Below, in pieces: positions 23,719-45,117 of a stretch of 60,892 bases of DNA. The stretch comes from a virus (Duplodnaviria; Heunggongvirae; Uroviricota; Caudoviricetes): IMG/VR virus record IMGVR_UViG_3300045988_133230; one strand, given 5' to 3'. The position numbers and the translations under genes are program-made. The notes under the pieces were generated by a model. That model worked only from the letters and a program-made list of their open reading frames with translations. It did no database searches and was not told the DNA's origin. Position 1 is the stretch's first letter; each line of letters begins with the position of its first letter.

Positions 23719-24387
23719 TCATATTGGCGTTATTAGTTCGGCGCCCTGATTTTTCACATTCCCGACGGCACGCGTTACGGCGTGCCATATAAATTTATCA
23801 GCCGGTACAACACCGTCGGCTGCAATTTCCGCTGCTTCTTTCCCTCCAACATCCTGCCTCATCCATTCACGCGCGGCTTCCGGTAGCAGTACCAGTGGTC
23901 GTCTGTCGTGAATATCAACCAGTCCTTTGTCAGCTGCAGCTGTAACTATCAGGAAACCTTCTGCTTCATCTCCACGTTCGAATGGTGTGCTGCCGATCGC
24001 CGCCATAAAAATCGGCTGACCGTCTGCCCGGTGAATAAAGTAGGGTTGTTTTTGGTCGCCTTCCTTTTTCCACTCATACCATCCATCAGCAAAGCAAATT
24101 GCGCGGCCATGCTGCCAGAGTGGTTTAAACATTCTGCTGGTGGCAGCAGTTTCAGACCGTGCATTAATGAGCGGCGGTTTATCCCACCAACCGGGGGCGT
24201 ATCCCCAGATAACTGGATCAAGATGCAACTGCTCATCACGTTCGCTCAGAAGCAGAACTTTTGTTCCTGGCGCTACGTTGAATCTTCCGATGGGTTCTGG
24301 ATCGTATGGAATATCGCGTTCTGATTCATCAGCGAGAAGGGCAAGATAATCTTCACGGGTCATTGACTGTGAAAAGCGTCCACACAT
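23719..24387 (-). CDS. SOS response-associated peptidase (SRAP/YedK family)
   Basis: 222 aa starting MCGRF with catalytic Cys2; family features recognisable by eye. Confidence 0.8.
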   Translation of the reverse strand: MCGRFSQSMTREDYLALLADESERDIPYDPEPIGRFNVAPGTKVLLLSERDEQLHLDPVIWGYAPGWWDKPPLINARSETAATSRMFKPLWQHGRAICFADGWYEWKKEGDQKQPYFIHRADGQPIFMAAIGSTPFERGDEAEGFLIVTAAADKGLVDIHDRRPLVLLPEAAREWMRQDVGGKEAAEIAADGVVPADKFIWHAVTRAVGNVKNQGAELITPI

Positions 24388-24586
24388 AGAAACCTCCAGC
24401 CGTATGTCAGACTGAAAGTATAGGGCAGTTAGAAAAAGTGGTGCACACCGTTAAAGATTTAAAAGGAGCATGTAAGGTAAATCGGAATGATGGTTTTGTG
24501 AATTGATGAATTCCGAAAGTGAAAAAGATACTTAATCATTGTGTGCTAGCGATACGGGGGCAACATTTGACGGGGTTTTTCCCCTG

Positions 24587-24708
24587 TAATTCCCCATTGC
24601 TTCCCCGTTCAGAAAACAGGCAAAAAAACCAGCCGTAACAGGCTGGTTCTTCGAGGATTTTTGGTCGGCACGAGAGGATTTGAACCTCCGCCCCCCGACA
24701 CCCCATAG
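24587..24708. repeat. 122-bp direct repeat copy 1 (tRNA 3' fragment plus terminator)
   Basis: About 97 percent identical to 25757-25879 by manual alignment. Confidence 0.85.
24662..24708 (-). other. tRNA-Pro-like 3' fragment (att-type remnant, not a complete gene)
   Basis: Reverse complement reads ...GGAGGTTCAAATCCTCTCGTGCCGACCA: T-arm, G72, A73 discriminator, CCA; no D-arm or 5' acceptor strand present. Confidence 0.65.
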
Positions 24709-24784
24709 TGTCGTGCTAATATTCTGATGGCCTATATGCGTCTACAGTAAGTTGATAGCATCATTCGTCGGTCGCTTCGTAGTC

Positions 24785-25600
24785 TCACATACGGATAAAA
24801 TTTTTTCTATTGATTTTGTCTCTATCAGAGCCATAAATGATGGTTGCAAAAAAACGACCTAATTCAAGATGGTGGAAGTGATTATCTTTTGCTTGAACTG
24901 TCATTGAGTCTAATATGTTATAGATGCATTCTATGATATGAATAACTAATAAAGTGCGATAACCAGCAAGCATTTCACTTCTTTTAAGTAAATAATTTAA
25001 ATCCCCTGCAGAGTTTATATGGTTTCTGTCTTCATCATAATATCCAAGCACATAGCATGGCAGTGTTTCACCATAGCTTCGGTATTGCTCGCATTTTTTA
25101 TCAATTATATTTTTTTGTCTTTTTGTTAATATTTTATCGTAAATGCTCTTATCGATTTCATTATACCATTGCTTCATGGGATCATTGTCGTTGTCATTAG
25201 TAATGAAATCAATATTACTATATCTTGATGAATTTGCAAAATTAGTTAACAACTCCATCACTCTGTAGTGAATTTCATTTAAGCCAGAGGGAGAATCAAC
25301 TCTCTCAATGACTAGGTTGAATAACTTGCTTAAGTTATGACCGTAATCTCTTAATTTTTTGCGTGATGTATATTTTCCATTTTTATTATAATCATCAAGC
25401 ATAAGGCAAAGTTTCATAAGCCTTTCTAATCCTAAACTGATGCCGGATAATGCTTGAAAATACAATCCTCTACTTGCAAAATTTGCTTTCCTTAGGGAAG
25501 TGAGCCCTATGCCTAATAATTGTCTTGAAAAGTCAACCTCATCAACAAATCTTCTGTATTTTTCATCCATAAAAACCTCAGTCAGCCAATTAATATTCAA
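24785..25600 (-). CDS. hypothetical 271-aa protein (cargo, possible abortive-infection type)
   Basis: AT-rich ORF lying between the two 122-bp direct repeats; no recognisable motif. Confidence 0.55.
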   Translation of the reverse strand: MNINWLTEVFMDEKYRRFVDEVDFSRQLLGIGLTSLRKANFASRGLYFQALSGISLGLERLMKLCLMLDDYNKNGKYTSRKKLRDYGHNLSKLFNLVIERVDSPSGLNEIHYRVMELLTNFANSSRYSNIDFITNDNDNDPMKQWYNEIDKSIYDKILTKRQKNIIDKKCEQYRSYGETLPCYVLGYYDEDRNHINSAGDLNYLLKRSEMLAGYRTLLVIHIIECIYNILDSMTVQAKDNHFHHLELGRFFATIIYGSDRDKINRKNFIRM

Positions 25601-25756
25601 GAATGATTTCTATAAAGAACTAATCTAGTTAAATCATCTGATGTAATTAGTATTACAATACCATCAGACGACATTGAAGCAGTATTGTGCCTTATCTACC
25701 CTATGTACGTCCATTGATAAAAATCTGCGCTTTTCGCAGTGGGGTCAATCGTAAGC

Positions 25757-25879
25757 TAATTTCCCCATTGCTTCCCCGTTCAGAAAACAGGCAAAAAAAA
25801 CCAGCCGTAACAGGCTGGTTCTTCGAGGATTTTTGGTCAGCACGAGAGGATTTGAACCTCCGCCCCCGACACCCCATAG
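25757..25879. repeat. 122-bp direct repeat copy 2, includes tRNA-Pro-like 3' fragment 25834-25879
   Basis: See copy 1; four point or length differences. Confidence 0.85.
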
Positions 25880-26073
25880 CGGTGATCTACCTTCTCATCA
25901 AGGGTAACCATGTGCCAGAAGCAGCCCTTGCGCACATTGGATGGGTATCAAATAATGAAGTAGGTCAACTTTATTAAATAAAATTGTGTTGGTTCAGATG
26001 ATCGAATGGGAATGAATAGTTTATTACTTTTGGTGACCGCAAGCGCGATCACCTTCGATTTGGTGGCAATTAC

Positions 26074-27042
26074 CTAGAATGATGCACAATCTTTAAGCTC
26101 TTTTTCTAGTTGTTCAACCAAGTCACAGCATTTTTTGATAACATCTTTAACTGACTCTGAATCTAACTTATGAAAATTACCATTTTTTGTTTTACCTGCT
26201 CGATGAACTAAGTCATGCCTAATTAACACGCTTTTATAAACTTCTGTGAAAACAGGGAATTTAATACCAAAGGTATCTCGATACATGCCACTTACTTTTG
26301 GCAGATTATGATAAAGAACACTCTTCATAGACTCTATCGCTTGAGACTCTATTTGTTCATGCCTTATAAATAATTCAGAAAGTAAGAATTTTTCTGTATT
26401 GTAATCTTTGAAGGTTTCAACAAAATTTCTCAAATTAGTTTGGCTACCATGAATTAGGGAAATAAATCTGTCACATAAATATGTTTCCAAGGAAGTTATT
26501 GTATTGGCATATAGCATATACGACATTTGTATTTGTAAAGTGCTATCAATTTTTAACTGAGCATCATTTAGTTTTATGGCGTTCTGCATACTATTTTGGA
26601 ATGTCATATAGACATCTCGTTCAGATAGCGTTCGATCATCAGAGTACTGCATATCAATAACATCTAGAATGCGCTGTTCAATTAATGAAGGTCTATTCAA
26701 CTGTAATATATCTATAGTCGCATGTCCTCGCTCAGTTAAACCTTCTAAATATCCATTTTTATTTTGTTTTATATGTTCTGAAAAACTTTCATTTAAAGGA
26801 TTTAGAAGTAATGGTTTGCCATTTTCATCGAGAGGAAACTGATCTTTTTTAATCATGCTACATGCCTTACAAGCGATGAGCAGGTTGTCTGTAGCATCTT
26901 GGAAGTCAGTATACTTTGATTTTGGGAAAAAACGATCAACATCCGCCATCAATGGTTCATAAAGTTTAGTGCCACAGTAAGCACATTGATGCTTAAACTT
27001 CTCCCATAGTTCAAGTTTAAACGTTTTATAATTCTTATTCAT
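26074..27042 (-). CDS. HNH-domain protein, 322 aa (N-terminal HNH-like nuclease, C-terminal unknown domain)
   Basis: CAYCG...DVDRFFPKSKY...NLLIACKACS resembles a Zn-finger HNH core; AT-rich; located where e14 carries mcrA. Confidence 0.6.
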   Translation of the reverse strand: MNKNYKTFKLELWEKFKHQCAYCGTKLYEPLMADVDRFFPKSKYTDFQDATDNLLIACKACSMIKKDQFPLDENGKPLLLNPLNESFSEHIKQNKNGYLEGLTERGHATIDILQLNRPSLIEQRILDVIDMQYSDDRTLSERDVYMTFQNSMQNAIKLNDAQLKIDSTLQIQMSYMLYANTITSLETYLCDRFISLIHGSQTNLRNFVETFKDYNTEKFLLSELFIRHEQIESQAIESMKSVLYHNLPKVSGMYRDTFGIKFPVFTEVYKSVLIRHDLVHRAGKTKNGNFHKLDSESVKDVIKKCCDLVEQLEKELKDCASF

Positions 27043-27764: not shown

Positions 27765-28907
27765 CTATGCTGTTTTGATATCTACGATAATCCAGTCTTT
27801 ACCACGATCATCATTGTATCGGTCGGTCATTTTTCTGGATTTATGGCCTAACAACTTTTGCGTATCCAGACCCTGTTCCCGATATAACCGTTCTGACAGA
27901 GATCGCTGCTCATGAAATGTGGGCGCAGTTCCTTGCTCCCATTTTATGCCACATTTTTCCCTGGCCTTTTTAAAAGCCGTTGTCAGAGTATTCGCAGAAA
28001 CCTGGTCTCCTCTGTTTGCTTGAGAGGTTGTGTGACGGTAATGGACCAGATATTTACTAACAACAGCATCCCTGCACTGAGATATAACTTCACGAAGGGT
28101 AATATTCAGAGCATCGCATTTCAGGTTAAGCGGAATAGCAAGTTTTGAACCGGTTTTTTCCTGAGTAATGTGCAACATGTCGTCCCAGATATCAGAGAAT
28201 TTCAAATTGCAGATATCGCCTAAACGTTGTCCAGTGACAAGAGCAAGTAGCATCCCACATTTTAAATAGGGCTGCCGTCTGCTTACGCTGTCAAATATTG
28301 CCTGCCATTCGGGCAGTGATAATCTTTGGCGGTTTACTCGATTTCGCGGTTGTTTTGTTGCCTGCGCTGGGTTAAATCCTGGCGGAACATGTCCTGCGTG
28401 TTGTGCTTCTTTGAAGACGTCGATTAACACCATTCTCACGACTTGCGCCATCCTGTTATGACCTTCAGCCTTTACAGCATCAATTATTTCGGCAATATCA
28501 AGTGCGGTAATATCCTTGAGGTGTTGCATTCCACAATGCTCACGGAAAAGACGAATGGGTTTGCCTTTTTGCCGATAGGAGTTGGGTCTTAGTTCATTAT
28601 GTTGCAGCCTGTCCTCCTGGATAGAAATATATTTATCAAGCCATTCTGTCACCGTAATGTCTGAGCGCCTGCCTTTCATTCTTTCCAGACGCTCATTGAC
28701 GCTTAATATTTGTCGGGTACGTTGTTCAGCAATAATGATATTTGCTTCAGTAGCAACTTGTTTTGCTTCATTCTCATCAGTTCCTAAGCTATGAAAACGA
28801 CCGGATAGTGGATGTTTGTATTGCCAATATACCTTTCCGGTTCGCTTATCTAATTTGCAATATAAATTGGGTATAGAGATTTTGTGAGATCGGGGTCTAG
28901 CAGCCAT
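27765..28907 (-). CDS. int: tyrosine integrase (e14 IntE-like, icd-targeting)
   Basis: 380 aa with C-terminal R...HxxR...Y catalytic region (LLGHKSRKMTDRY); adjacent to icd fragment. Confidence 0.9.
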   Translation of the reverse strand: MAARPRSHKISIPNLYCKLDKRTGKVYWQYKHPLSGRFHSLGTDENEAKQVATEANIIIAEQRTRQILSVNERLERMKGRRSDITVTEWLDKYISIQEDRLQHNELRPNSYRQKGKPIRLFREHCGMQHLKDITALDIAEIIDAVKAEGHNRMAQVVRMVLIDVFKEAQHAGHVPPGFNPAQATKQPRNRVNRQRLSLPEWQAIFDSVSRRQPYLKCGMLLALVTGQRLGDICNLKFSDIWDDMLHITQEKTGSKLAIPLNLKCDALNITLREVISQCRDAVVSKYLVHYRHTTSQANRGDQVSANTLTTAFKKAREKCGIKWEQGTAPTFHEQRSLSERLYREQGLDTQKLLGHKSRKMTDRYNDDRGKDWIIVDIKTA

Positions 28908-32762: not shown

Positions 32763-33000
32763 GCTGCGGATCTAAGCGGTCATCGCAACGGTGAATCAGG
32801 TGATTGCCGTATCGTTGTGTTGTTGCGACATGGTGATAATAGCTATTGCTATTGACTATATCAATACTTATTGCTATTGATTGATGTGTTTTGATATTAA
32901 CTGTTTGATAGCAAAAAGAATTAATTTTGTGACTTGCATCGCATAGCGATAACTGAAGCGAGGTCGTGGTGGTTTTTTGAACGGTTTATGTGATGAGGGG
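32763..33000. promoter_or_regulatory. OL/pL-type control region
   Basis: Non-coding; three GCTATTG heptamers (32842, 32848, 32873), the same motif as in the cI-cro intergenic region. Confidence 0.5.
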
Positions 33001-33002
33001 AG

Positions 33003-33032
33003 GCAAAAGAAAACCCGGCACGACGGCCGGGG
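33003..33032 (-). terminator. intrinsic terminator after the cI-linked ORF
   Basis: Minus strand CCCGGC-CGTCGT-GCCGGG hairpin followed by TTTTCTTTT. Confidence 0.6.
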
Positions 33033-33035
33033 AAA

Positions 33036-33899
33036 TCATTTCGCATCTACAATAAATAACCTGTTTATCTGGCCTTTTTTAACAGTAGCCTTTGCGGTTA
33101 TAGTGAATACTGCAGATGGATCACCTTTGGTTGATATATATGCACTAAGAGCTCTAATATACGGGTTATTCTTCTTTCCTGCAGCTGGATCGCTAATTTC
33201 AGCAGTGATTCTCTTTTTTGAGTCATCACCATCTAAAATTATTTTAGCTGTCATATTTTGTGCATCAAATTCTGTAAGAAAAGCACGATACTCACGAAGA
33301 CCGAGAACTTCATCATCATCAAGCCTATCAATTTCAGCTTTATCTCTCTCGTTAACTTTTAGAAGGCAGCCGTCAACATTTGTTGCAACACTTATCTGAT
33401 CGCAAGTATTACCAATAGGTGATACTGCCTGCCTTACAGAGGGGCGAAGCTCTACAGCCATTCGGTCAATCAAAGAGATCAACTTATCAATGGTTCCAGC
33501 ATCCTTGTTTCCTAGTGCCTCTATGGCCTTTTCAAGTGACTGCTGCAAAGCTTTCATTTCATCTTTCTTGTTAGAATTTCTCGCAAAAATATATTGTAGT
33601 ATTGCGCCAAGTATAGTTGCGGCGATCCCCGAGAACAACTGGTTCTGAGTGGCGAAGTTAAGAACTGCTTCAAGAGTAAAGCAGTTAGCTTTTGCTTCGC
33701 GTGCGTAAACCTTAACTTCCTGATAATTAATGTATTTACTATATTTTTGTGTAACAGAGAAAGAAGCTGCTGTTGAGAGAACTTTAGAAAAACCCTTTAG
33801 GGATTCTCCTAGGCAGTTCAAATCTATTTCATGATTTAAAGCATCTTTTCCGTCATACCTAAGAGAGATTTTTATATCCTGTAAAGCGTCACAATCCAT
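33036..33899 (-). CDS. hypothetical 287-aa protein downstream of cI (rexAB slot)
   Basis: AT-rich ORF 66 bp downstream of cI stop, same strand, own terminator; one internal hydrophobic segment. Confidence 0.55.
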
Positions 33900-33965
33900 A
33901 AATCGCTCTCGTCTAATTCTAATTAAATTTACTATCCCCTAAACGACTCATCAGCACAGTACTGA

Positions 33966-34658
33966 TTATCCATGTTTCCTGTACGTCTGGGGCATGCTCC
34001 CAATAACCTTACCGAAGATGAACACCCGGTTCATCTCGTCTTTCTCGATCGGGTCCCACGGTGAGTAGCTCTTGTTATCAGAGATAACCAGCAGCTTATC
34101 CTTCATCATTTGCAGGCGCTTTACATGGGCGGTGTCGTCGTACAGAAACGCATAGATGCCATCACCGTCGAAAGATTTAACCGTGATATCAACGAACAGA
34201 AGATCACCAGGTTCAATCGTTCCTGACATGCTGTCACCGCGTACGTTAATGATGCGGATATTTTCTGCCTTCCTACCATCGAACATGTGACGAGCATCGT
34301 CAAACGAGTACTCAACCGAGCGTAGAACTTCTACAAACTCACGGTTGATGACTCCCGGCCCGGCACTCACTTCTATATCAAGAACGTCAATCTTGAAGTA
34401 TTTGGGATGGTTGGCAGTAGGCTTCCCTAATTGTTGACCGTCATTTCTCATCGGGCCTATGCCTGATGAGAGCCACTCTGTTCGAACACCCAATGCATTA
34501 GCTATTTCAACAATTTTTGTTGAGCCGCGCGCGTTGCCGCTTGTCAGTCTCCAGATTGTGGGTTGAGCTACGCCAGACGCCTTTGCAAGAGCGCCTTGAG
34601 ACATTCCAGATTGTTCCATCGCTAGGTTTAAGCGATCAGCAAGAGTTTCTTTTTTCAT
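33966..34658 (-). CDS. cI: CI-type repressor (HTH plus S24 LexA-like peptidase domain)
   Basis: HTH (QGALAKASGVAQPTIWRL), Ser-Lys dyad (GDSM...K); start placed at ATG 34658 (ORF track TTG at 34694). Confidence 0.85.
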   Translation of the reverse strand: MKKETLADRLNLAMEQSGMSQGALAKASGVAQPTIWRLTSGNARGSTKIVEIANALGVRTEWLSSGIGPMRNDGQQLGKPTANHPKYFKIDVLDIEVSAGPGVINREFVEVLRSVEYSFDDARHMFDGRKAENIRIINVRGDSMSGTIEPGDLLFVDITVKSFDGDGIYAFLYDDTAHVKRLQMMKDKLLVISDNKSYSPWDPIEKDEMNRVFIFGKVIGSMPQTYRKHG

Positions 34659-34768
34659 AAGTTTTAATTTATACGCTTGCGTATTGATGGTCAAAACACG
34701 TTTTGCTATTGCTGTGATTAATACGCATTGCTATTATTTATTCATTGTAATACCAATAGGAATTAATA
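34659..34768. promoter_or_regulatory. OR / pRM-pR divergent control region
   Basis: 14-bp perfect palindrome ATACGCTTGCGTAT (34671-34684) and GCTATT(G) repeats at 34705 and 34730 between divergent cI and cro. Confidence 0.6.
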
Positions 34769-34996
34769 ATGACAAATCAAACCATTCAACTCGCAATCAG
34801 TATTACAGGTAGTCAAAAACGACTGGCAGATCTATGCGGTGTAGCCCAGCCCACTGTTTGGCGTTGGCTACACGGTGGCGGAATTGATGCCCGCTATGTA
34901 ATGAAAATTGTCTCAGCCACTGGTGGAAAGATTAAACCAGCAGATATTCGTCCCGACCTCGCACCATTGTTTAACGCGAGTAATTCTGCCGCCTAA
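34769..34996 (+). CDS. cro: Cro-type HTH regulator
   Basis: 75 aa, HTH, divergent from cI. Confidence 0.75.
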   Translation: MTNQTIQLAISITGSQKRLADLCGVAQPTVWRWLHGGGIDARYVMKIVSATGGKIKPADIRPDLAPLFNASNSAA

Positions 34997-37280: not shown

Positions 37281-37579
37281 CGGGCAAAGAGGCAATTATT
37301 CATTACCTGGGGACTCATAAGAACTTCTGTGCGCAGGACGTTGCCGCGGTAACAGGCGCAACCGTAACCAGCATAAATCAGGCTGCGGCTAAAATGGCGC
37401 GGGCAGGAATCCTGGTCGTTGATGGTAAGGTCTGGCGAACGGTGTATTATCGGTTCGCTACCAGAGAAGAACGGGAAGGAAAGGTGAGCGCGAATTTGAT
37501 TTTTAAGGAGTGTCGCCAGAGTGCCGCGATGAAACGGGTATTGAGGGTATATAAAAGAACATCAATGGGTACACAATGA
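37277..37579 (+). CDS. ren: Ren
   Basis: MTGKEAIIHYLGTH... matches lambda Ren. Confidence 0.8.
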   Translation: MTGKEAIIHYLGTHKNFCAQDVAAVTGATVTSINQAAAKMARAGILVVDGKVWRTVYYRFATREEREGKVSANLIFKECRQSAAMKRVLRVYKRTSMGTQ

Positions 37580-37646
37580 TGAAACAGGTGAGTTGAGTTC
37601 AAACTGTAGTACAATTCTCTCCAGTTTGAACAGGAAAGAATATGCT

Positions 37647-37979
37647 ATGAACCCTTATATTTATCTTGGTGGTGCAATACTTGCAGAGGTCATTGGTACA
37701 ACCTTAATGAAGTTTTCAGAAGGTTTTACACGGTTATGGCCATCTGTTGGTACAATTATTTGTTATTGTGCATCATTCTGGTTATTAGCTCAGACGCTGG
37801 CTTATATACCTACAGGGATTGCTTATGCTATCTGGTCAGGAGTCGGTATTGTCCTGATTAGCATACTATCATGGGGATTTTTCGGCCAACGGTTGGACCT
37901 GCCAGCCATTATAGGCATGATGTTGATTTGTGCCGGTGTGTTGGTTATTAATTTATTGTCACGAAGCACACCACATTAA
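37647..37979 (+). CDS. emrE: small multidrug resistance efflux protein EmrE
   Basis: 110 aa MNPYIYLGGAILAEVIGTTLMKFSEGF... matches EmrE (a DLP12 prophage gene in K-12); start at internal ATG 37647. Confidence 0.9.
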   Translation: MNPYIYLGGAILAEVIGTTLMKFSEGFTRLWPSVGTIICYCASFWLLAQTLAYIPTGIAYAIWSGVGIVLISILSWGFFGQRLDLPAIIGMMLICAGVLVINLLSRSTPH

Positions 37980-38234
37980 AAATAATTTATTTTTAAACGA
38001 CTAAAATATGGAGGTTCGTATATTTGTATGGGCCTCGTTTTATGCTTTTTGTTAATGTCTTTAGTTTTTATTCATTCTTTTGAACTTTCAAGATTATGGT
38101 GTAAGAAAATTGCAATACGATTATTGTTGTATATTCAAGATAATGTGACCTTAATTGTCTTTTTAAATAAAAATTAAACAAAAATCATATCTCACCACTA
38201 AGGTTTATAAAAGCATACTTTAGCAGGTGTCACC

Positions 38235-39761
38235 ATGAAAAAAGCCATAGCATATATGCGATTTTCATCACCAGGTCAGATGTCTGGTGATTCATTAAAC
38301 CGCCAGAGAAGGCTTATTACTGAATGGCTAAAGGTAAATAGTGATTATTACCTTGATACCGTAACGTATGAAGATTTGGGGTTAAGCGCATTCAATGGAA
38401 AGCATGCACAATCAGGAGCTTTTTCGGAATTTTTAGATGCTATAGAACATGGTTACATATTGCCAGGGACTACATTGTTAGTTGAAAGTCTGGACAGACT
38501 TTCAAGAGAAAAAGTCGGTGAAGCGATTGAGCGTCTGAAATTGATTTTGAATCACGGTATTGATGTTATAACTCTTTGCGATAATACAGTCTATAATATA
38601 GACTCATTGAATGAGCCATATTCATTAATAAAAGCCATACTTATAGCACAAAGGGCAAATGAAGAAAGCGAGATAAAGTCAAGTCGGGTTAAATTATCAT
38701 GGAAGAAAAAACGGCAGGATGCACTGGAATCAGGCACGATTATGACGGCGTCTTGTCCGAGATGGCTCTCATTGGATGACAAAAGAACAGCTTTTATTCC
38801 AGACCCCGACAGGGTGAAAACGATTGAGCTAATTTTTAAACTCAGGATGGAAAGGCGATCATTGAATGCAATAGCTAAGTATTTAAATGATCATGCTGTA
38901 AAAAATTTTTCAGGAAAAGAAAGTGCATGGGGGCCTTCTGTAATTGAAAAATTATTAGCGAATAAAGCTCTGATAGGTATATGCGTACCTTCATATCGTG
39001 CAAGAGGGAAAGGGATAAGTGAAATCGCTGGCTATTATCCCAGAGTCATATCAGATGATTTGTTTTACGCTGTACAGGAAATTCGGTTGGCACCTTTTGG
39101 TATTAGCAATAGTAGCAAGAATCCTATGCTAATAAATCTACTTCGAACAGTTATGAAGTGTGAGGCTTGTGGTAATACCATGATTGTTCATGCGGTATCT
39201 GGACGTTTGCATGGCTATTATGTTTGTCCGATGAGAAGATTACATCGATGTGACAGGCCATCAATAAAAAGAGATTTGGTTGATTATAATATCATTAATG
39301 AATTGCTTTTTAATTGTAGCAAAATTCAACCAGTTGAAAACAAGAAAGATGCTAATGAAACTTTAGAGTTAAAAATTATTGAGCTTCAGATGAAAATTAA
39401 TAATTTAATCGTTGCATTGTCTGTCGCGCCTGAAGTTACCGCTATAGCAGAGAAAATAAGACTATTAGATAAGGAATTACGAAGGGCTTCGGTATCATTA
39501 AAAACTTTGAAGAGTAAAGGGGTGAGTTCACTTGGTGATTTTCATGCTATTGATTTAACTAGTAAAAATGGGCGAGAGCTATGTCGTACACTTGCCTATA
39601 AAATATTCGAAAAAATTATAATTAATACAGATAATAAAACCTGTGATATCTATTTTATGAATGGCATTGTTTTTAAACACTATCCTTTAATGAAAGTAAT
39701 ATCCGCCCAGCAGGCGATAAGCACTCTTAAATATATGGTTGATGGTGAGATTTATTTTTGA
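38235..39761 (+). CDS. ybcK: large serine recombinase (YbcK-like)
   Basis: Resolvase N-terminal catalytic region (YMRFSSPGQ...SLDRLSR), Cys-rich zinc ribbon; AT-rich. Confidence 0.75.
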   Translation: MKKAIAYMRFSSPGQMSGDSLNRQRRLITEWLKVNSDYYLDTVTYEDLGLSAFNGKHAQSGAFSEFLDAIEHGYILPGTTLLVESLDRLSREKVGEAIERLKLILNHGIDVITLCDNTVYNIDSLNEPYSLIKAILIAQRANEESEIKSSRVKLSWKKKRQDALESGTIMTASCPRWLSLDDKRTAFIPDPDRVKTIELIFKLRMERRSLNAIAKYLNDHAVKNFSGKESAWGPSVIEKLLANKALIGICVPSYRARGKGISEIAGYYPRVISDDLFYAVQEIRLAPFGISNSSKNPMLINLLRTVMKCEACGNTMIVHAVSGRLHGYYVCPMRRLHRCDRPSIKRDLVDYNIINELLFNCSKIQPVENKKDANETLELKIIELQMKINNLIVALSVAPEVTAIAEKIRLLDKELRRASVSLKTLKSKGVSSLGDFHAIDLTSKNGRELCRTLAYKIFEKIIINTDNKTCDIYFMNGIVFKHYPLMKVISAQQAISTLKYMVDGEIYF

Positions 39762-40110
39762 GTAATAATCACTTTTTCAACCGTGCTATGGTATGAAAGT
39801 AAAGTAACTACTATGATATTAACTATCTTGAACGAAGCGCCCTGAGCTATAGTTTTACTATAGGCACTGCCACTGGATGTTGGCATTCTCGCTCTAGTAG
39901 CTCAACAATACCCAATCACAAAACAATTCACTGATAACAAACTTTGTGCACGTGCTTAGTTATGGCGAACAGGTGATGTTAACCTCCTGCCAGAATGCCA
40001 CTCCACTTCATTAAGTATCTGAGCACCGAGAGGCTGGTCACGCCCCCATTAAAAATAATTTCTTTTGAATCGAGTGAAATAGGTTAGCCCGCATAAGTGC
40101 GGGCTGCTTT

Positions 40111-41154
40111 TTACAGGTCAGCGTTTGTTTTTTGTTGTTGGGTAGCGGTTTTTATGGGGGTTCCCAGGTTTTTAGTAAACCACTCAACAACTCTGTTTAT
40201 AATAATTGGCTGATACCATGTATTATCACCATGCTCAGCCCCTTCTACCAGAACGTACTCAGCGTTATCGCCGTTCTTCTTCAACATCCTGAATAGTTTG
40301 GCGCTTTGCTCAGGTGAAACCAGAGTGTCTTTGCTACCATGCATAATAAGAAATGGGGGTTTTACTCCTTTCATATGTCCGATTGGACTGGCGTTTAGCG
40401 CTTTTTCTTTTGACGCTGTGATGGGGGCTCCCGCAAAATTTCTGAATGCAGGGCCATTGATCATTAAGGCTTCGGTTACGGCAGGAGAGCGATGAACCTC
40501 CTGCACTGATTCAGGGAACCCCTCGCCAATATTCAACAAGTCAGAAATCCCATAAAGTGTGGCAACTGCCTGAACATCTGAGGATTGCTGAAGAAAGTCA
40601 CCTTTATCAAAGGTTTTGTCACCATTTGTAGTTCCCATCATCTGAGCAAGCCATCCACCGGCAGAGTCACCCAGAACTCCGATTCTTTGAGGATCAATCC
40701 CATAATTGCTGGCATGCTCTCTCAGGTAACGTATTGCAGCTTTTCCATCCTCAACTGGTGCTGGAAATGTATCAGGAATTGTTCTGTATTCTACAGCGGC
40801 CACAACAAAACCAGCTTCTGCCAGAGCCATTCTCATTTCAATAAATTTGTCATGTTCAGAAGACATGAATCCGCCGCCGGGATAATAAATAATGGCTGGT
40901 TTTAAATCATTTGTTCGCGGGACAAGAACTGACATGTGAAGCTGTCTGACAGAACGAGTTCCTTTTATCTGGGAATAAACAACATCACCAATGAGATCGA
41001 CCTGGTTTCTGGTCGGTGAAACACTAATGATATCTGCACCCGGGGTGTAACCAGGAAGATTAGTCTGGACAGGTGTTGCACAACTCCCGACCGACATGGC
41101 CATTGACATACCATACAATAGTGTTGCAGATGATAATATCTTGTTAATTTTCAT
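40111..41154 (-). CDS. alpha/beta-hydrolase esterase/lipase, predicted lipoprotein
   Basis: Signal peptide ending VGSC, oxyanion motif YPGGGF, nucleophile elbow GDSAGG. Confidence 0.7.
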   Translation of the reverse strand: MKINKILSSATLLYGMSMAMSVGSCATPVQTNLPGYTPGADIISVSPTRNQVDLIGDVVYSQIKGTRSVRQLHMSVLVPRTNDLKPAIIYYPGGGFMSSEHDKFIEMRMALAEAGFVVAAVEYRTIPDTFPAPVEDGKAAIRYLREHASNYGIDPQRIGVLGDSAGGWLAQMMGTTNGDKTFDKGDFLQQSSDVQAVATLYGISDLLNIGEGFPESVQEVHRSPAVTEALMINGPAFRNFAGAPITASKEKALNASPIGHMKGVKPPFLIMHGSKDTLVSPEQSAKLFRMLKKNGDNAEYVLVEGAEHGDNTWYQPIIINRVVEWFTKNLGTPIKTATQQQKTNADL

Positions 41155-41601
41155 GTTTTACATGCCTTGACTTATCGGATGAAATTCTCTTACTGAATTT
41201 AACGGCAGTTTAATAGCCGTACAACTCGTGGTAGCCAGGGAAATATCCCAGTCGTGGTTAAGGTTGTACTTGACGGCTATTATTTCAACAATGCTTAAAG
41301 TGAGAGCTTAAGGTTATGCGTATGTTTTACAGTCCGAGTAGATTCTGACCAATAGCTTCTTTGTATAATTCTGTCAGAAATAAATCTTGGCTTGCATGAA
41401 GTTTGAGACCTTATCTTGTTTGATTATGAATAATCAATTCGCCATAATTGTATCACCGGAGCCTGAACAACTCCGGTGACTTCTGCGCTAAACGGGGACG
41501 TTTATGCGCACACACAATCCAAACTCTCTTCTCCCTTCACAGATGCAGAAATGCACCTGCGTTTTTTTGCATCCAGCGTCTGACCTCTGTGGAGGTGAAG
41601 C

Positions 41602-43663: not shown

Positions 43664-44746
43664 TTAGAACTGATAAACCAGACCTACAGCGACGATGTCG
43701 TCGGTATCAATACCAGCTGTTTTGGTAAACTTACTATCGTCAATTAAGTTGATTTTGTAATCAACAAAAGTGGACATGTTTTTATTAAAGTAGTAAGTAG
43801 CACCGACATCGACATACTTGACTAAGTCTCGGTCACCATGAACACCAAGGTCTTTACCTTTTGACTGAAGGTAAGCAACAGATGGGCGCAGACCGAAGTC
43901 AAACTGATATTGTGCTACTGCTTCAAAGTTTTGTGCTTTGTTTGCAATATGGTTATTACCAAAAACGGTCATATTCTGAGTTTCAGAATATGTGGTAGCC
44001 AGATAGATATTGTTCGCATCATATTTCAGGCCTGCAGCCCATACTTCCGCATTTTTGCCGGAGGCATTGAATTTGCTCTTACCATAGGCGACCTGACCGT
44101 CAGTGCGATCTGATTTAGCATAGGTTGCACCCACGCCGAATCCTTCATACTCATAAGTAGTGGAGAAACCGAAACCATCACCATTGGCTTCAGTTACGTC
44201 AGTGCGGTCATTTTTACCCTGATACTGAGCAGCAAAGTTCAGGCCATCGACCAGACCAAAGAAGTCGTTGTTACGATAAGTTGCAACACCAGTAGTGCGA
44301 CCAGTCATGAACACATCTGTTTGGGTCCAGGTATCACCACCGAATTCTGGCAGAACGTCAGTCCACGCACCGATGTCGTATGCTACACCGTAGTTACGGC
44401 CGTAATCGATTGAGCCGTAATCACCAAATTTCAGGCCTGCAAATGCAAGACGGGTTTTGTCTTTGGAAGAACCTTGAGATTCAGCACGGTTGCCTTTGAA
44501 TTCATATTCCCACTGACCGAAACCAGTCAGTTGATCGTTGATTTGGGTTTCACCTTTGAAGCCAAGACGGGCATAAGTAGTATCACCATCATCTGCATCA
44601 TTAGAGGAGAAGTAGTGCTTGGCATTAACTTTCCCGTATAGATCCAGCTTGTTACTGTCTTTATTATAAATTTCAGCTGCCTGAGCAGACATCGCCATCA
44701 GTACTGATGCAGCTACAGCAGAAATTGCCACTGTTAATTTTTTCAT
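43664..44746 (-). CDS. outer-membrane porin (OmpC/NmpC/Lc family)
   Basis: Signal peptide [23 protein letters not shown], beta-barrel porin sequence ending ...GLVYQF; start at ATG 44746. Confidence 0.85.
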
Positions 44747-45117
44747 TGTACGCCCTTTTTTTGAACTATTATTAAAAAATGATGTCACTGCGCGATAAAT
44801 ATTCATCTAATCAATGTGATTATTTCAAGATGTAAGTTTTAGTTTCTCATTTAATTTGTGAAGTAGATCTCTATTTTTATCTGAACCTTTTCTATCTAAT
44901 CCTATTCATGGCTCTTGTTTGAACGAAAATAAATCTATTAGCTAATTTATATTAATGGCACTTATTTATAAGCGCTCTATAATTCTTTAGCTTAATTTAA
45001 ACAAACTAAAAATAACATCGGAAATTATTCATTGGTTATTTGTTGAAGTTTTCTTATGTATTTGTGGTGGTGTTTTGAACACTCGGTGGCATTCTCACAA
45101 ATATCATTTAGTAGTTT

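Follow-up and report, generated by a model that had tools for sequence, protein, structure and literature searches.

A DUF7946/DUF7947 gene in the rexAB slot of a lambdoid prophage as candidate single-gene exclusion cargo of the immunity region

The immunity region of a lambdoid prophage was analyzed within a stretch of viral DNA of 60,892 nucleotides (nt) (Caudoviricetes; IMG/VR record IMGVR_UViG_3300045988_133230), the whole of which is referred to here as the window. The element in question is an open reading frame (ORF) encoding a protein of 287 amino acids (aa), located directly after the gene of a CI-type repressor (cI) on the same strand (Table 1). A preliminary description of the locus, made from the sequence, had placed a 66-nt gap between the two genes, and this proved exact; no promoter-like or terminator-like site was detected in a scan of the minus strand of the gap. 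The likely start of cI is the ATG at 34658, in agreement with the RefSeq annotation of near-identical prophages, which carry the same 693-nt gene. The ORF was confirmed as AT-rich, with a GC content of 0.38-0.41 compared with 0.50-0.55 in the adjoining early genes. The intrinsic terminator reported after the ORF was likewise recovered, its onset 4 nt past the stop codon. The stem, CCCGGC/GCCGGG (33031-33014), is composed of six G-C pairs with a 6-nt loop and is followed by TTTTCTTTT at 33013-33005, while a folding energy of -19.1 kcal/mol was obtained for the 56-nt context (z = -3.4 versus shuffles). The G+C-rich hairpin and immediate T-run that characterize a Rho-independent terminator are therefore both present, and termination at this site is predicted. 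The ORF, equipped with its own terminator and without a promoter, has the layout of a one-gene cassette.

The pair formed by cI and the ORF is flanked by two clusters of operator-like sites (ATAGCWATWGCTAT; 32839-32877 and 34702-34763), designated the left (oL) and right (oR) operators, which have a 49-nt repeat (D1) in common. Because it is bracketed by this repeat and by the two clusters, the pair is placed inside the immunity region, at the opposite border of which lies a divergent Cro-like gene. The pL-like site (TTGATA, 17 nt, TATTAT; 32864-32836, minus strand) is the strongest promoter candidate of the region and is located just beyond the terminator. A distance of 7 nt separates the -10 element of the pRM-like promoter from the cI ATG, and the cI message is therefore predicted to be nearly leaderless, as is established for the message from lambda pRM. 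The resulting order of pRM-like promoter, cI, 66-nt gap, 287-aa ORF, terminator, and oL/pL parallels the cI-rexA-rexB-oL order of lambda, in agreement with the earlier assignment of the ORF to the rexA-rexB slot. As in the lambda annotation, the slot lies between cI and oL, is occupied on the cI strand, and ends at a terminator. This layout fits read-through of the ORF from the repressor transcript, by which it would be expressed in the lysogen. The ORF is accordingly read as accessory cargo carried in the immunity region of the prophage.

Table 1. Positions of genes, protein domains, and signals at the immunity region, numbered from the first letter of the window.
Feature	Coordinates	Strand	Basis
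Left operator cluster oL, overlapping the pL-like promoter	32836..32877	.	
Intrinsic terminator of the cI-ORF unit (predicted)	33004..33031	-	Hairpin and T-run, scan and folding
287-aa ORF (DUF7946 + DUF7947; phi80 gene 40A homologue), ATG start	33036..33899	-	ORF list and Pfam
DUF7947 domain, residues 201-287, predicted OB-fold beta-barrel	33039..33299	-	
DUF7946 domain, residues 11-191	33327..33869	-	Pfam
Hydrophobic helix, residues 88-106	33582..33638	-	Kyte-Doolittle mean 1.85
cI-ORF gap, 66 nt; cI stop ends at 33966	33900..33965	-	Read from sequence and scan
Shine-Dalgarno-like GAGAG, 6 nt 5' of the ORF ATG	33906..33910	-	Direct reading
CI-type repressor gene, 230 aa / 693 nt	33966..34658	-	HTH_3 and Peptidase_S24 (Pfam)
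pRM-like promoter (TTGACC, 17 nt, TAAATT), predicted candidate maintenance promoter	34666..34694	-	
Right operator cluster oR, three operator-like sites in the cI-cro interval	34702..34763	.	Site scan and repeat D1
Cro-like helix-turn-helix gene, divergent from cI	34769..34996	+	ORF list; annotated helix-turn-helix protein in near-identical prophages

The preliminary description had recognized no motif in the 287-aa protein, a statement that did not survive profile searches. Pfam DUF7946 was matched with an expect value (E) of 3.8e-55 and 187.2 bits (cut-off 27), the whole 183-position profile being covered, and DUF7947 was matched C-terminal to it (E 1.4e-18, 67.1 bits, cut-off 27). Both domains were present in 107 of 109 diverse relatives. 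The protein also matched PHROG 5147, a family of unknown function (E 1.5e-178). Homologues in a library of 1.8 billion proteins formed 498 clusters at 50% identity (E <= 0.001), with lengths of mostly about 265-300 aa among the 150 clusters listed. Comparison with a 91%-identical homologue gave a ratio of nonsynonymous to synonymous substitution rates (dN/dS) of 0.055 at dS 0.9, and the gene is under strong purifying selection. The Pfam E-values, the number of homologue clusters, and the dN/dS together exclude a chance ORF. The protein has no signal peptide, and no recognizable enzyme or transporter domain was found in it using Pfam.

Among the homologues is protein 40A of phage phi80 (PHI80_46, AFV29182), which is colinear with the 287-aa protein and 62% identical to it over residues 1-285 (99% of the length; E 2e-114). 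The two share the same two-domain make-up, and gene 40A likewise occupies the position immediately behind cI, ahead of oL/pL, and is followed by a terminator-like site. The phi80 region differs in its repressor and operator set, and its cI gap is 136 nt rather than 66 nt. The older record X13065 split the gene into 40A and 40B, and the GenBank note 'acetate kinase superfamily domain' on 40A was not reproduced by Pfam. In the literature searched, no paper mentioning the family, its domains, or its accessions was found, nor any report of a function for gp40A, nor anything relevant on PDC-S42 or the PHROG family.

Disrupted copies of the ORF were also observed. In three E. coli genomes IS1 lies in or adjoining an otherwise identical ORF, and frameshifted or truncated copies occur in four viral contigs; a fitness cost or errors of sequencing could account for these.

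The only match of the 287-aa protein in PADLOC-DB 2.0 was to the phage-defence candidate family PDC-S42 (E 1.5e-4, 19.3 bits), between residues 9-127 and profile positions 4-113 of 302, such that the N-terminal 119 residues were matched and a full-length match was not obtained. The same profile was matched by 28 of the 109 family members, with a best E of 3e-8. PDC-S42, NCBIfam LAPAL_fam, and PHROGs 3243 and 13337 are all approximately 275-300 aa in length, and their first 110-190 positions align with residues 9-190 of the protein. The matches to PDC-S42, LAPAL_fam, and the PHROGs are weak (E 1.5e-4, 4.7e-6, and 2.4e-7) and restricted to the N-terminal part, with LAPAL_fam falling below the NCBIfam cut-off (26 versus 60 bits). 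These are sister families of the one described here.

Two AlphaFold models were considered, the second of which was built from 109 sequences and reached a predicted local distance difference test score (pLDDT) of 93 and a predicted template-modelling score (pTM) of 0.79. The predicted fold is compact, and the model is confident throughout. Its elements include strand 9-16, helix 27-50, strands 62-66 and 74-82, and helices 87-108, 112-128, 134-150, and 152-158, and the layout comprises, from the N-terminus, a strand-helix-strand-strand unit, four to five bundled helices (among them 87-108), a beta-hairpin, and a barrel of the oligonucleotide/oligosaccharide-binding (OB) type. In the first model, the C-terminal domain is a closed beta-barrel of five strands that superposes on known OB folds, as an OB fold is defined. 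With this model, Foldseek against the PDB returned nothing below E 0.05 and only generic OB folds, Foldseek against viral predicted structures returned only uncharacterised proteins, and a PDB sequence search with two family profiles returned nothing below E 0.02. The OB-fold binders compared were SSB, RPA, PriB, and Ten1, the metal binders CusF/SilF, and the B subunits of AB5 toxins; the 287-aa protein does not retain the metal-binding residues of CusF/SilF, and a ligand is not readable from the OB fold. Residues at least 90% conserved family-wide are G17, S33, G36, P161, D237, P238, and Y247, whereas K219, R230, and K270 are invariant among the closer relatives and are located, together with the D-P...Y motif, in the OB domain. 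The conserved residues are not a catalytic signature, and no recognised catalytic motif is present; the D-P...Y motif and the three residues K219, R230, and K270 point to ligand binding, possibly of nucleic acid.

The model also bears on the internal hydrophobic segment noted in the preliminary description. The segment is present, at residues 88-106, and is followed by a lysine-rich stretch; in 23 closer relatives its Kyte-Doolittle mean is about 1.5-2.5 (at least 1.49). These features, together with weak holin-like PHROG matches over residues 79-148 (E of about 0.1), would suit a one-protein, membrane-acting counterpart of Rex, in which the helix is hidden inside the soluble fold until, upon a phage trigger, it inserts into the inner membrane and oligomerises via a face of small residues (S90, A94, G98), so that the membrane depolarises and infection aborts. 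RexB, in the same slot, would be the functional analogue. A membrane-grade character of the segment appears not to hold across the family, however. Maximum hydrophobicity among the 109 diverse members has a median of 1.55 and reaches 1.6 or more in 51 of them, charged residues occur at helix positions 91, 94, 95, 98, and 102, and the most hydrophobic window coincides with the helix in only 62/109. Furthermore, the helix lies within the compact model, a simple insertion-energy sum for it is unfavourable (+1.6 kcal/mol), and no similarity to RexB was detected. Because of the hydrophobicity and charges seen family-wide and its placement in a confident compact model, helix 88-106 is read as a core helix, with conditional membrane insertion a minority possibility; the membrane-acting explanation as a whole is unlikely. 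A constitutive single-pass topology was rejected as unlikely too, since it would require 87 charged N-terminal residues to be moved through the membrane in a protein that has no signal peptide.

The ORF and the repressor gene were searched for in 5426 complete E. coli genomes. The ORF was found in 77 of them, at 99% identity or higher in each, while a full-length cI at 95-99% identity was found in 719. In other prophages with the same cI, the interval from cI to kil/oL contains different cargo or nothing. The alternatives comprise a 353-aa protein with an ASCH-domain protein (PADLOC PDC-M11A/B), a 533-aa SIR2 protein (PADLOC PDC-S25, E 1e-234) resembling the ThsA SIR2 domain, a Ser/Thr kinase with a RuvC-family protein, DUF3037 with a HipA-type kinase, ImmA/IrrE with DUF4411, a hypothetical protein with DUF6932, a RexA-family antiphage protein, an acetyltransferase with an ASCH-domain protein, a BamE-like (lipo)protein, an uncharacterised 126-aa protein without a PADLOC match (locus L094, 2572-2952), and an empty slot. 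Gene content at this position shows that one E. coli immunity region exchanges at least ten cargo sets, several of them uncharacterised. The earlier statement that this slot holds other exclusion genes elsewhere is supported by the alternative cargo found beside the same repressor, with a RexA-family protein, SIR2, and kinases among it. The rexAB-slot assignment is well supported on these comparisons, and the variable cargo is its strongest support.

The comparison of immunity regions proposed in the preliminary description was extended to 93 loci of the wider family, drawn from genomes, viral contigs, and assemblies. The nearest upstream ORF on the same strand is a repressor gene in about 80 of the 93, usually less than 150 nt away. 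The linked repressors form 18 clusters (<60% identity) compared with 10 clusters of the cargo protein; Peptidase_S24 was found in 17 and HTH_3 in 15 of the 18. The family gene has therefore been combined with many immunity specificities, nearly always directly behind the repressor. Of 63 distinct contexts, 55 have a terminator-like hairpin and T-run past the stop codon of the gene, in most cases no more than 40 nt away, whereas the gap between repressor and family gene contains a terminator-like site in only 4 of 53. No conserved partner gene was found, consistent with the earlier reading of the locus as a single gene rather than a rex pair. The family spans the Enterobacterales, Pasteurellaceae, Neisseriaceae, and Burkholderiaceae, with hosts including Morganella, Vitreoscilla, Neisseria, Mannheimia, Citrobacter, and Erwinia. 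The homologue is followed by a SIR2 gene in Vitreoscilla and by a kinase matching the anti-T4 system PD-T4-6 (E 2e-24) in Citrobacter. Exceptions to the repressor linkage lie in accessory settings of other kinds, which include a Serratia island with a homologue near AbiD and AlpA, small integrase-linked islands, a prophage end with DinI genes, and a Helicobacter-type prophage in which the homologue lies among KilA-N and toxin-antitoxin-like genes, after the terminase and portal genes. The NCBIfam name and the Helicobacter-type prophage had raised the possibility that the protein is structural, which was rejected in view of these KilA-N and toxin-antitoxin-like neighbours and of the location of the gene outside structural modules elsewhere.

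A tight linkage to self-cleaving repressors could also indicate that the protein modulates the prophage's own switch, an OB-fold protein of the single-stranded-DNA-binding type tuning induction, for example by acting on RecA filaments or on repressor cleavage, or stabilising one state. Consistent with this, 17 of the 18 linked repressor clusters are of the Peptidase_S24 type, the C-terminal OB fold resembles SSB, RPA, and PriB, DinI-family genes adjoin some homologues, and strong purifying selection would suit a housekeeping-type partner; phi80 lysogens, moreover, are unusually sensitive to ultraviolet light and release very high phage titres (PMC2885432). The S24 association is nevertheless little informative, as most lambdoid repressors are S24-type. 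The 18 linked repressor types are unrelated and include a 132-aa repressor without S24 (12 loci), the family gene also occurs without any repressor in small islands by AbiD or an integrase, and the ORF is missing from 642 of the 719 E. coli genomes that contain this cI, in which other cargo or none takes its place. The switch therefore works without the 287-aa ORF, and its modulation is considered an improbable function.

The composition of the slot cargo is likewise relevant to whether the ORF is a lysogenic-conversion gene, conferring a host benefit unrelated to phages (stress tolerance, colonisation, or virulence) and parked in a well-expressed slot. The BamE-like lipoprotein, the acetyltransferase, and the 126-aa protein without a PADLOC match would be in keeping with such a gene, as would the EmrE-like transporter and porin carried by the same prophage, and strains with phi80 40A have no documented phage phenotype. 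Most of the identifiable alternative cargo, on the other hand, is of the defence type, the linkage to a repressor is kept across hosts of very different lifestyles, and the protein has no signal peptide or recognizable enzyme or transporter domain. A conversion function of this kind is assigned a low likelihood.

The best-supported explanation is that the 287-aa protein protects the lysogen against some other phages, as rexAB does in lambda, and this anti-phage role is given a probability of roughly 0.5. In its favour are the position and cassette layout kept among relatives, the variable cargo of the slot, the defence-type genes near some homologues, the weak N-terminal match to PDC-S42, the strong purifying selection, and the C-terminal OB fold. 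Lambda RexA, at 279 aa, is close in size to the 287-aa protein, and a RexA-family gene holds the same slot in related E. coli prophages. The Rex system, in contrast, consists of two genes, whereas the gene described here stands alone, without a four-helix membrane partner; no second gene for a RexB-type multi-pass membrane protein was found at the locus. Homology to RexA or RexB was rejected, as hhalign of the family profile gave probabilities of 0.2% and 0.1%, respectively, and no PADLOC or Pfam Rex match was obtained. Remote homology searches and structure prediction, both suggested at the outset, thus yielded an uncharacterised family and an OB fold but no similarity to RexA or RexB. A parallel in arrangement is BstA of the Salmonella prophage BTP1, a single gene after the repressor with a presumed shared promoter and its own Rho-independent terminator (PMC8585504), as for the 287-aa ORF. 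BstA has a demonstrated abortive-infection phenotype, whereas one for the family of the 287-aa ORF is putative. KilA-N was not matched in the 287-aa protein by Pfam at E up to 1, nor was any BstA-type domain found using Pfam and PADLOC; the ORF thus belongs neither to the Rex nor to the BstA family.

Several observations weigh against a protective role. A slot shared with defence genes amounts to guilt by association, and no experiment linking the DUF7946/DUF7947 family to phage exclusion was found in the literature searched. No validated PADLOC 2.0 defence model was matched, the only hit, to the candidate family PDC-S42, being weak. The dN/dS of 0.055 carries no signal of arms-race diversification. 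The OB-fold call was taken from the first model, which had an overall pLDDT of 74.6 and about 86-93 in that domain. Phage sensitivity of strains carrying 40A, on which the published data are indirect and mixed, provides further points of this kind. Full phi80 lysogens are reported to support normal plating of lambda, lambda imm21, and lambda imm434 (PMC2885432). The phi80 cI-40A segment is 100% identical in the cloning strains DH5alpha, DH10B, TOP10, JM83, XL10-Gold, and EPI300, which carry phi80dlacZ-deltaM15, and likewise in NEB 5-alpha and 10-beta, and DH10B (1338581-1380294) retains the phi80 early, lysis, and head genes, only the tail region being absent. DH10B has been used for plaque assays of T4, T5, T7, N4, and lambda (PMC9712115), and because these were performed on a 40A-carrying strain, any exclusion by phi80 40A would spare those phages. 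Any exclusion by the family is therefore probably narrow in range, and a broad phenotype is unlikely.

On full phi80 (Lula) lysogens, T4 reportedly does not plate and the yield of P1 is cut approximately tenfold, with the responsible gene not identified (PMC2885432). As the identical cI-40A is present in DH10B, on which T4 is assayed, 40A was downgraded to an unlikely sole cause of the T4 resistance. The other phi80 accessory proteins matched no known defence model in PADLOC. The single weak match was of a HEPN-like type (E 0.004), to PHI80_63 (L106, 44365-44979), a leftward gene for a 204-aa protein between the phi80 lysis genes and cos. This gene is also kept in DH10B, and the accessory proteins were dropped as the T4 determinant; PHI80_63 may be a second, candidate lysogen-expressed accessory gene.

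If the 287-aa protein is protective, the following sequence of events is proposed. The lysogen would make the protein from the repressor transcript as a cytoplasmic, compact, two-part molecule. Its OB-fold domain (D237-P238, Y247, K219, R230, K270) would recognise a product of the infecting phage, the candidate ligand being most likely single-stranded nucleic acid or a replication/recombination nucleoprotein, and the N-terminal DUF7946 module would then block phage development or arrest the cell. A nucleic-acid or nucleoprotein ligand is, taken by itself, on the unlikely side, and any particular way of executing the block is improbable at best. As sketched, the mechanism would be unlike that of RexAB, with an unrelated protein taking the same role in the slot. 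In a wider formulation, judged somewhat less likely than not, DUF7946/DUF7947 proteins may constitute a new family of single-protein abortive-infection or exclusion effectors without an enzyme domain, combining an OB-fold sensor with an undescribed N-terminal module and distributed as repressor-operon cargo across the Proteobacteria.

Few places in a lysogen are as reliably expressed as the post-repressor slot, from which RexAB and BstA are already known. Repressor-linked exclusion cargo is a known kind, and it is the protein family that is new; if protective, the DUF7946/DUF7947 protein resembles no characterised system. An anti-phage role would also provide a function for phi80 gene 40A, which has been in the sequence records (X13065) for decades with none reported in the literature searched. 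Standard cloning strains carry, and probably express, a member of the family, and if the role is correct, 40A in DH5alpha, DH10B, and TOP10 could bias experiments on phage host range and defence systems.

Additional observations were made on the repressor gene and on the remainder of the window. The cI gene was matched in about 2200 E. coli genomes, in only 719 of them at full length. In the sampled partial hits, the match corresponds to the first 453 nt of the plus-strand query (33966-34418), the 3' part of cI, which encodes the S24 cleavage domain, and the DNA-binding part differs. Such partial matches point to a probable recombination breakpoint within the repressor gene.

The lambdoid prophage has its left end at approximately 27488, adjoining an integrase (27765-28907), and lies in tandem with a second prophage of the myovirus type in the first part of the window (1-25000; tail sheath, tape measure, DNA circularization protein, portal, and terminase). 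Between the two are three minus-strand ORFs (23719-27042), comprising a SOS-response-associated peptidase (SRAP; 23719-24387), a 271-aa ORF without a match (24785-25600), and a 322-aa HNH nuclease resembling Septu PtuB (26074-27042; PADLOC E 1e-23). This inter-prophage interval may be another spot for defence-type cargo. Within the lambdoid prophage, the nin region contains an insert (37543-41431) that is absent from the closest related prophage and includes the EmrE-like small multidrug transporter (37593-37979), a 508-aa large serine recombinase (38235-39761), and an alpha/beta hydrolase on the minus strand (40111-41154). Downstream of the Q antiterminator region, an OmpC/NmpC-type porin gene encodes 380 aa (43664-44806).

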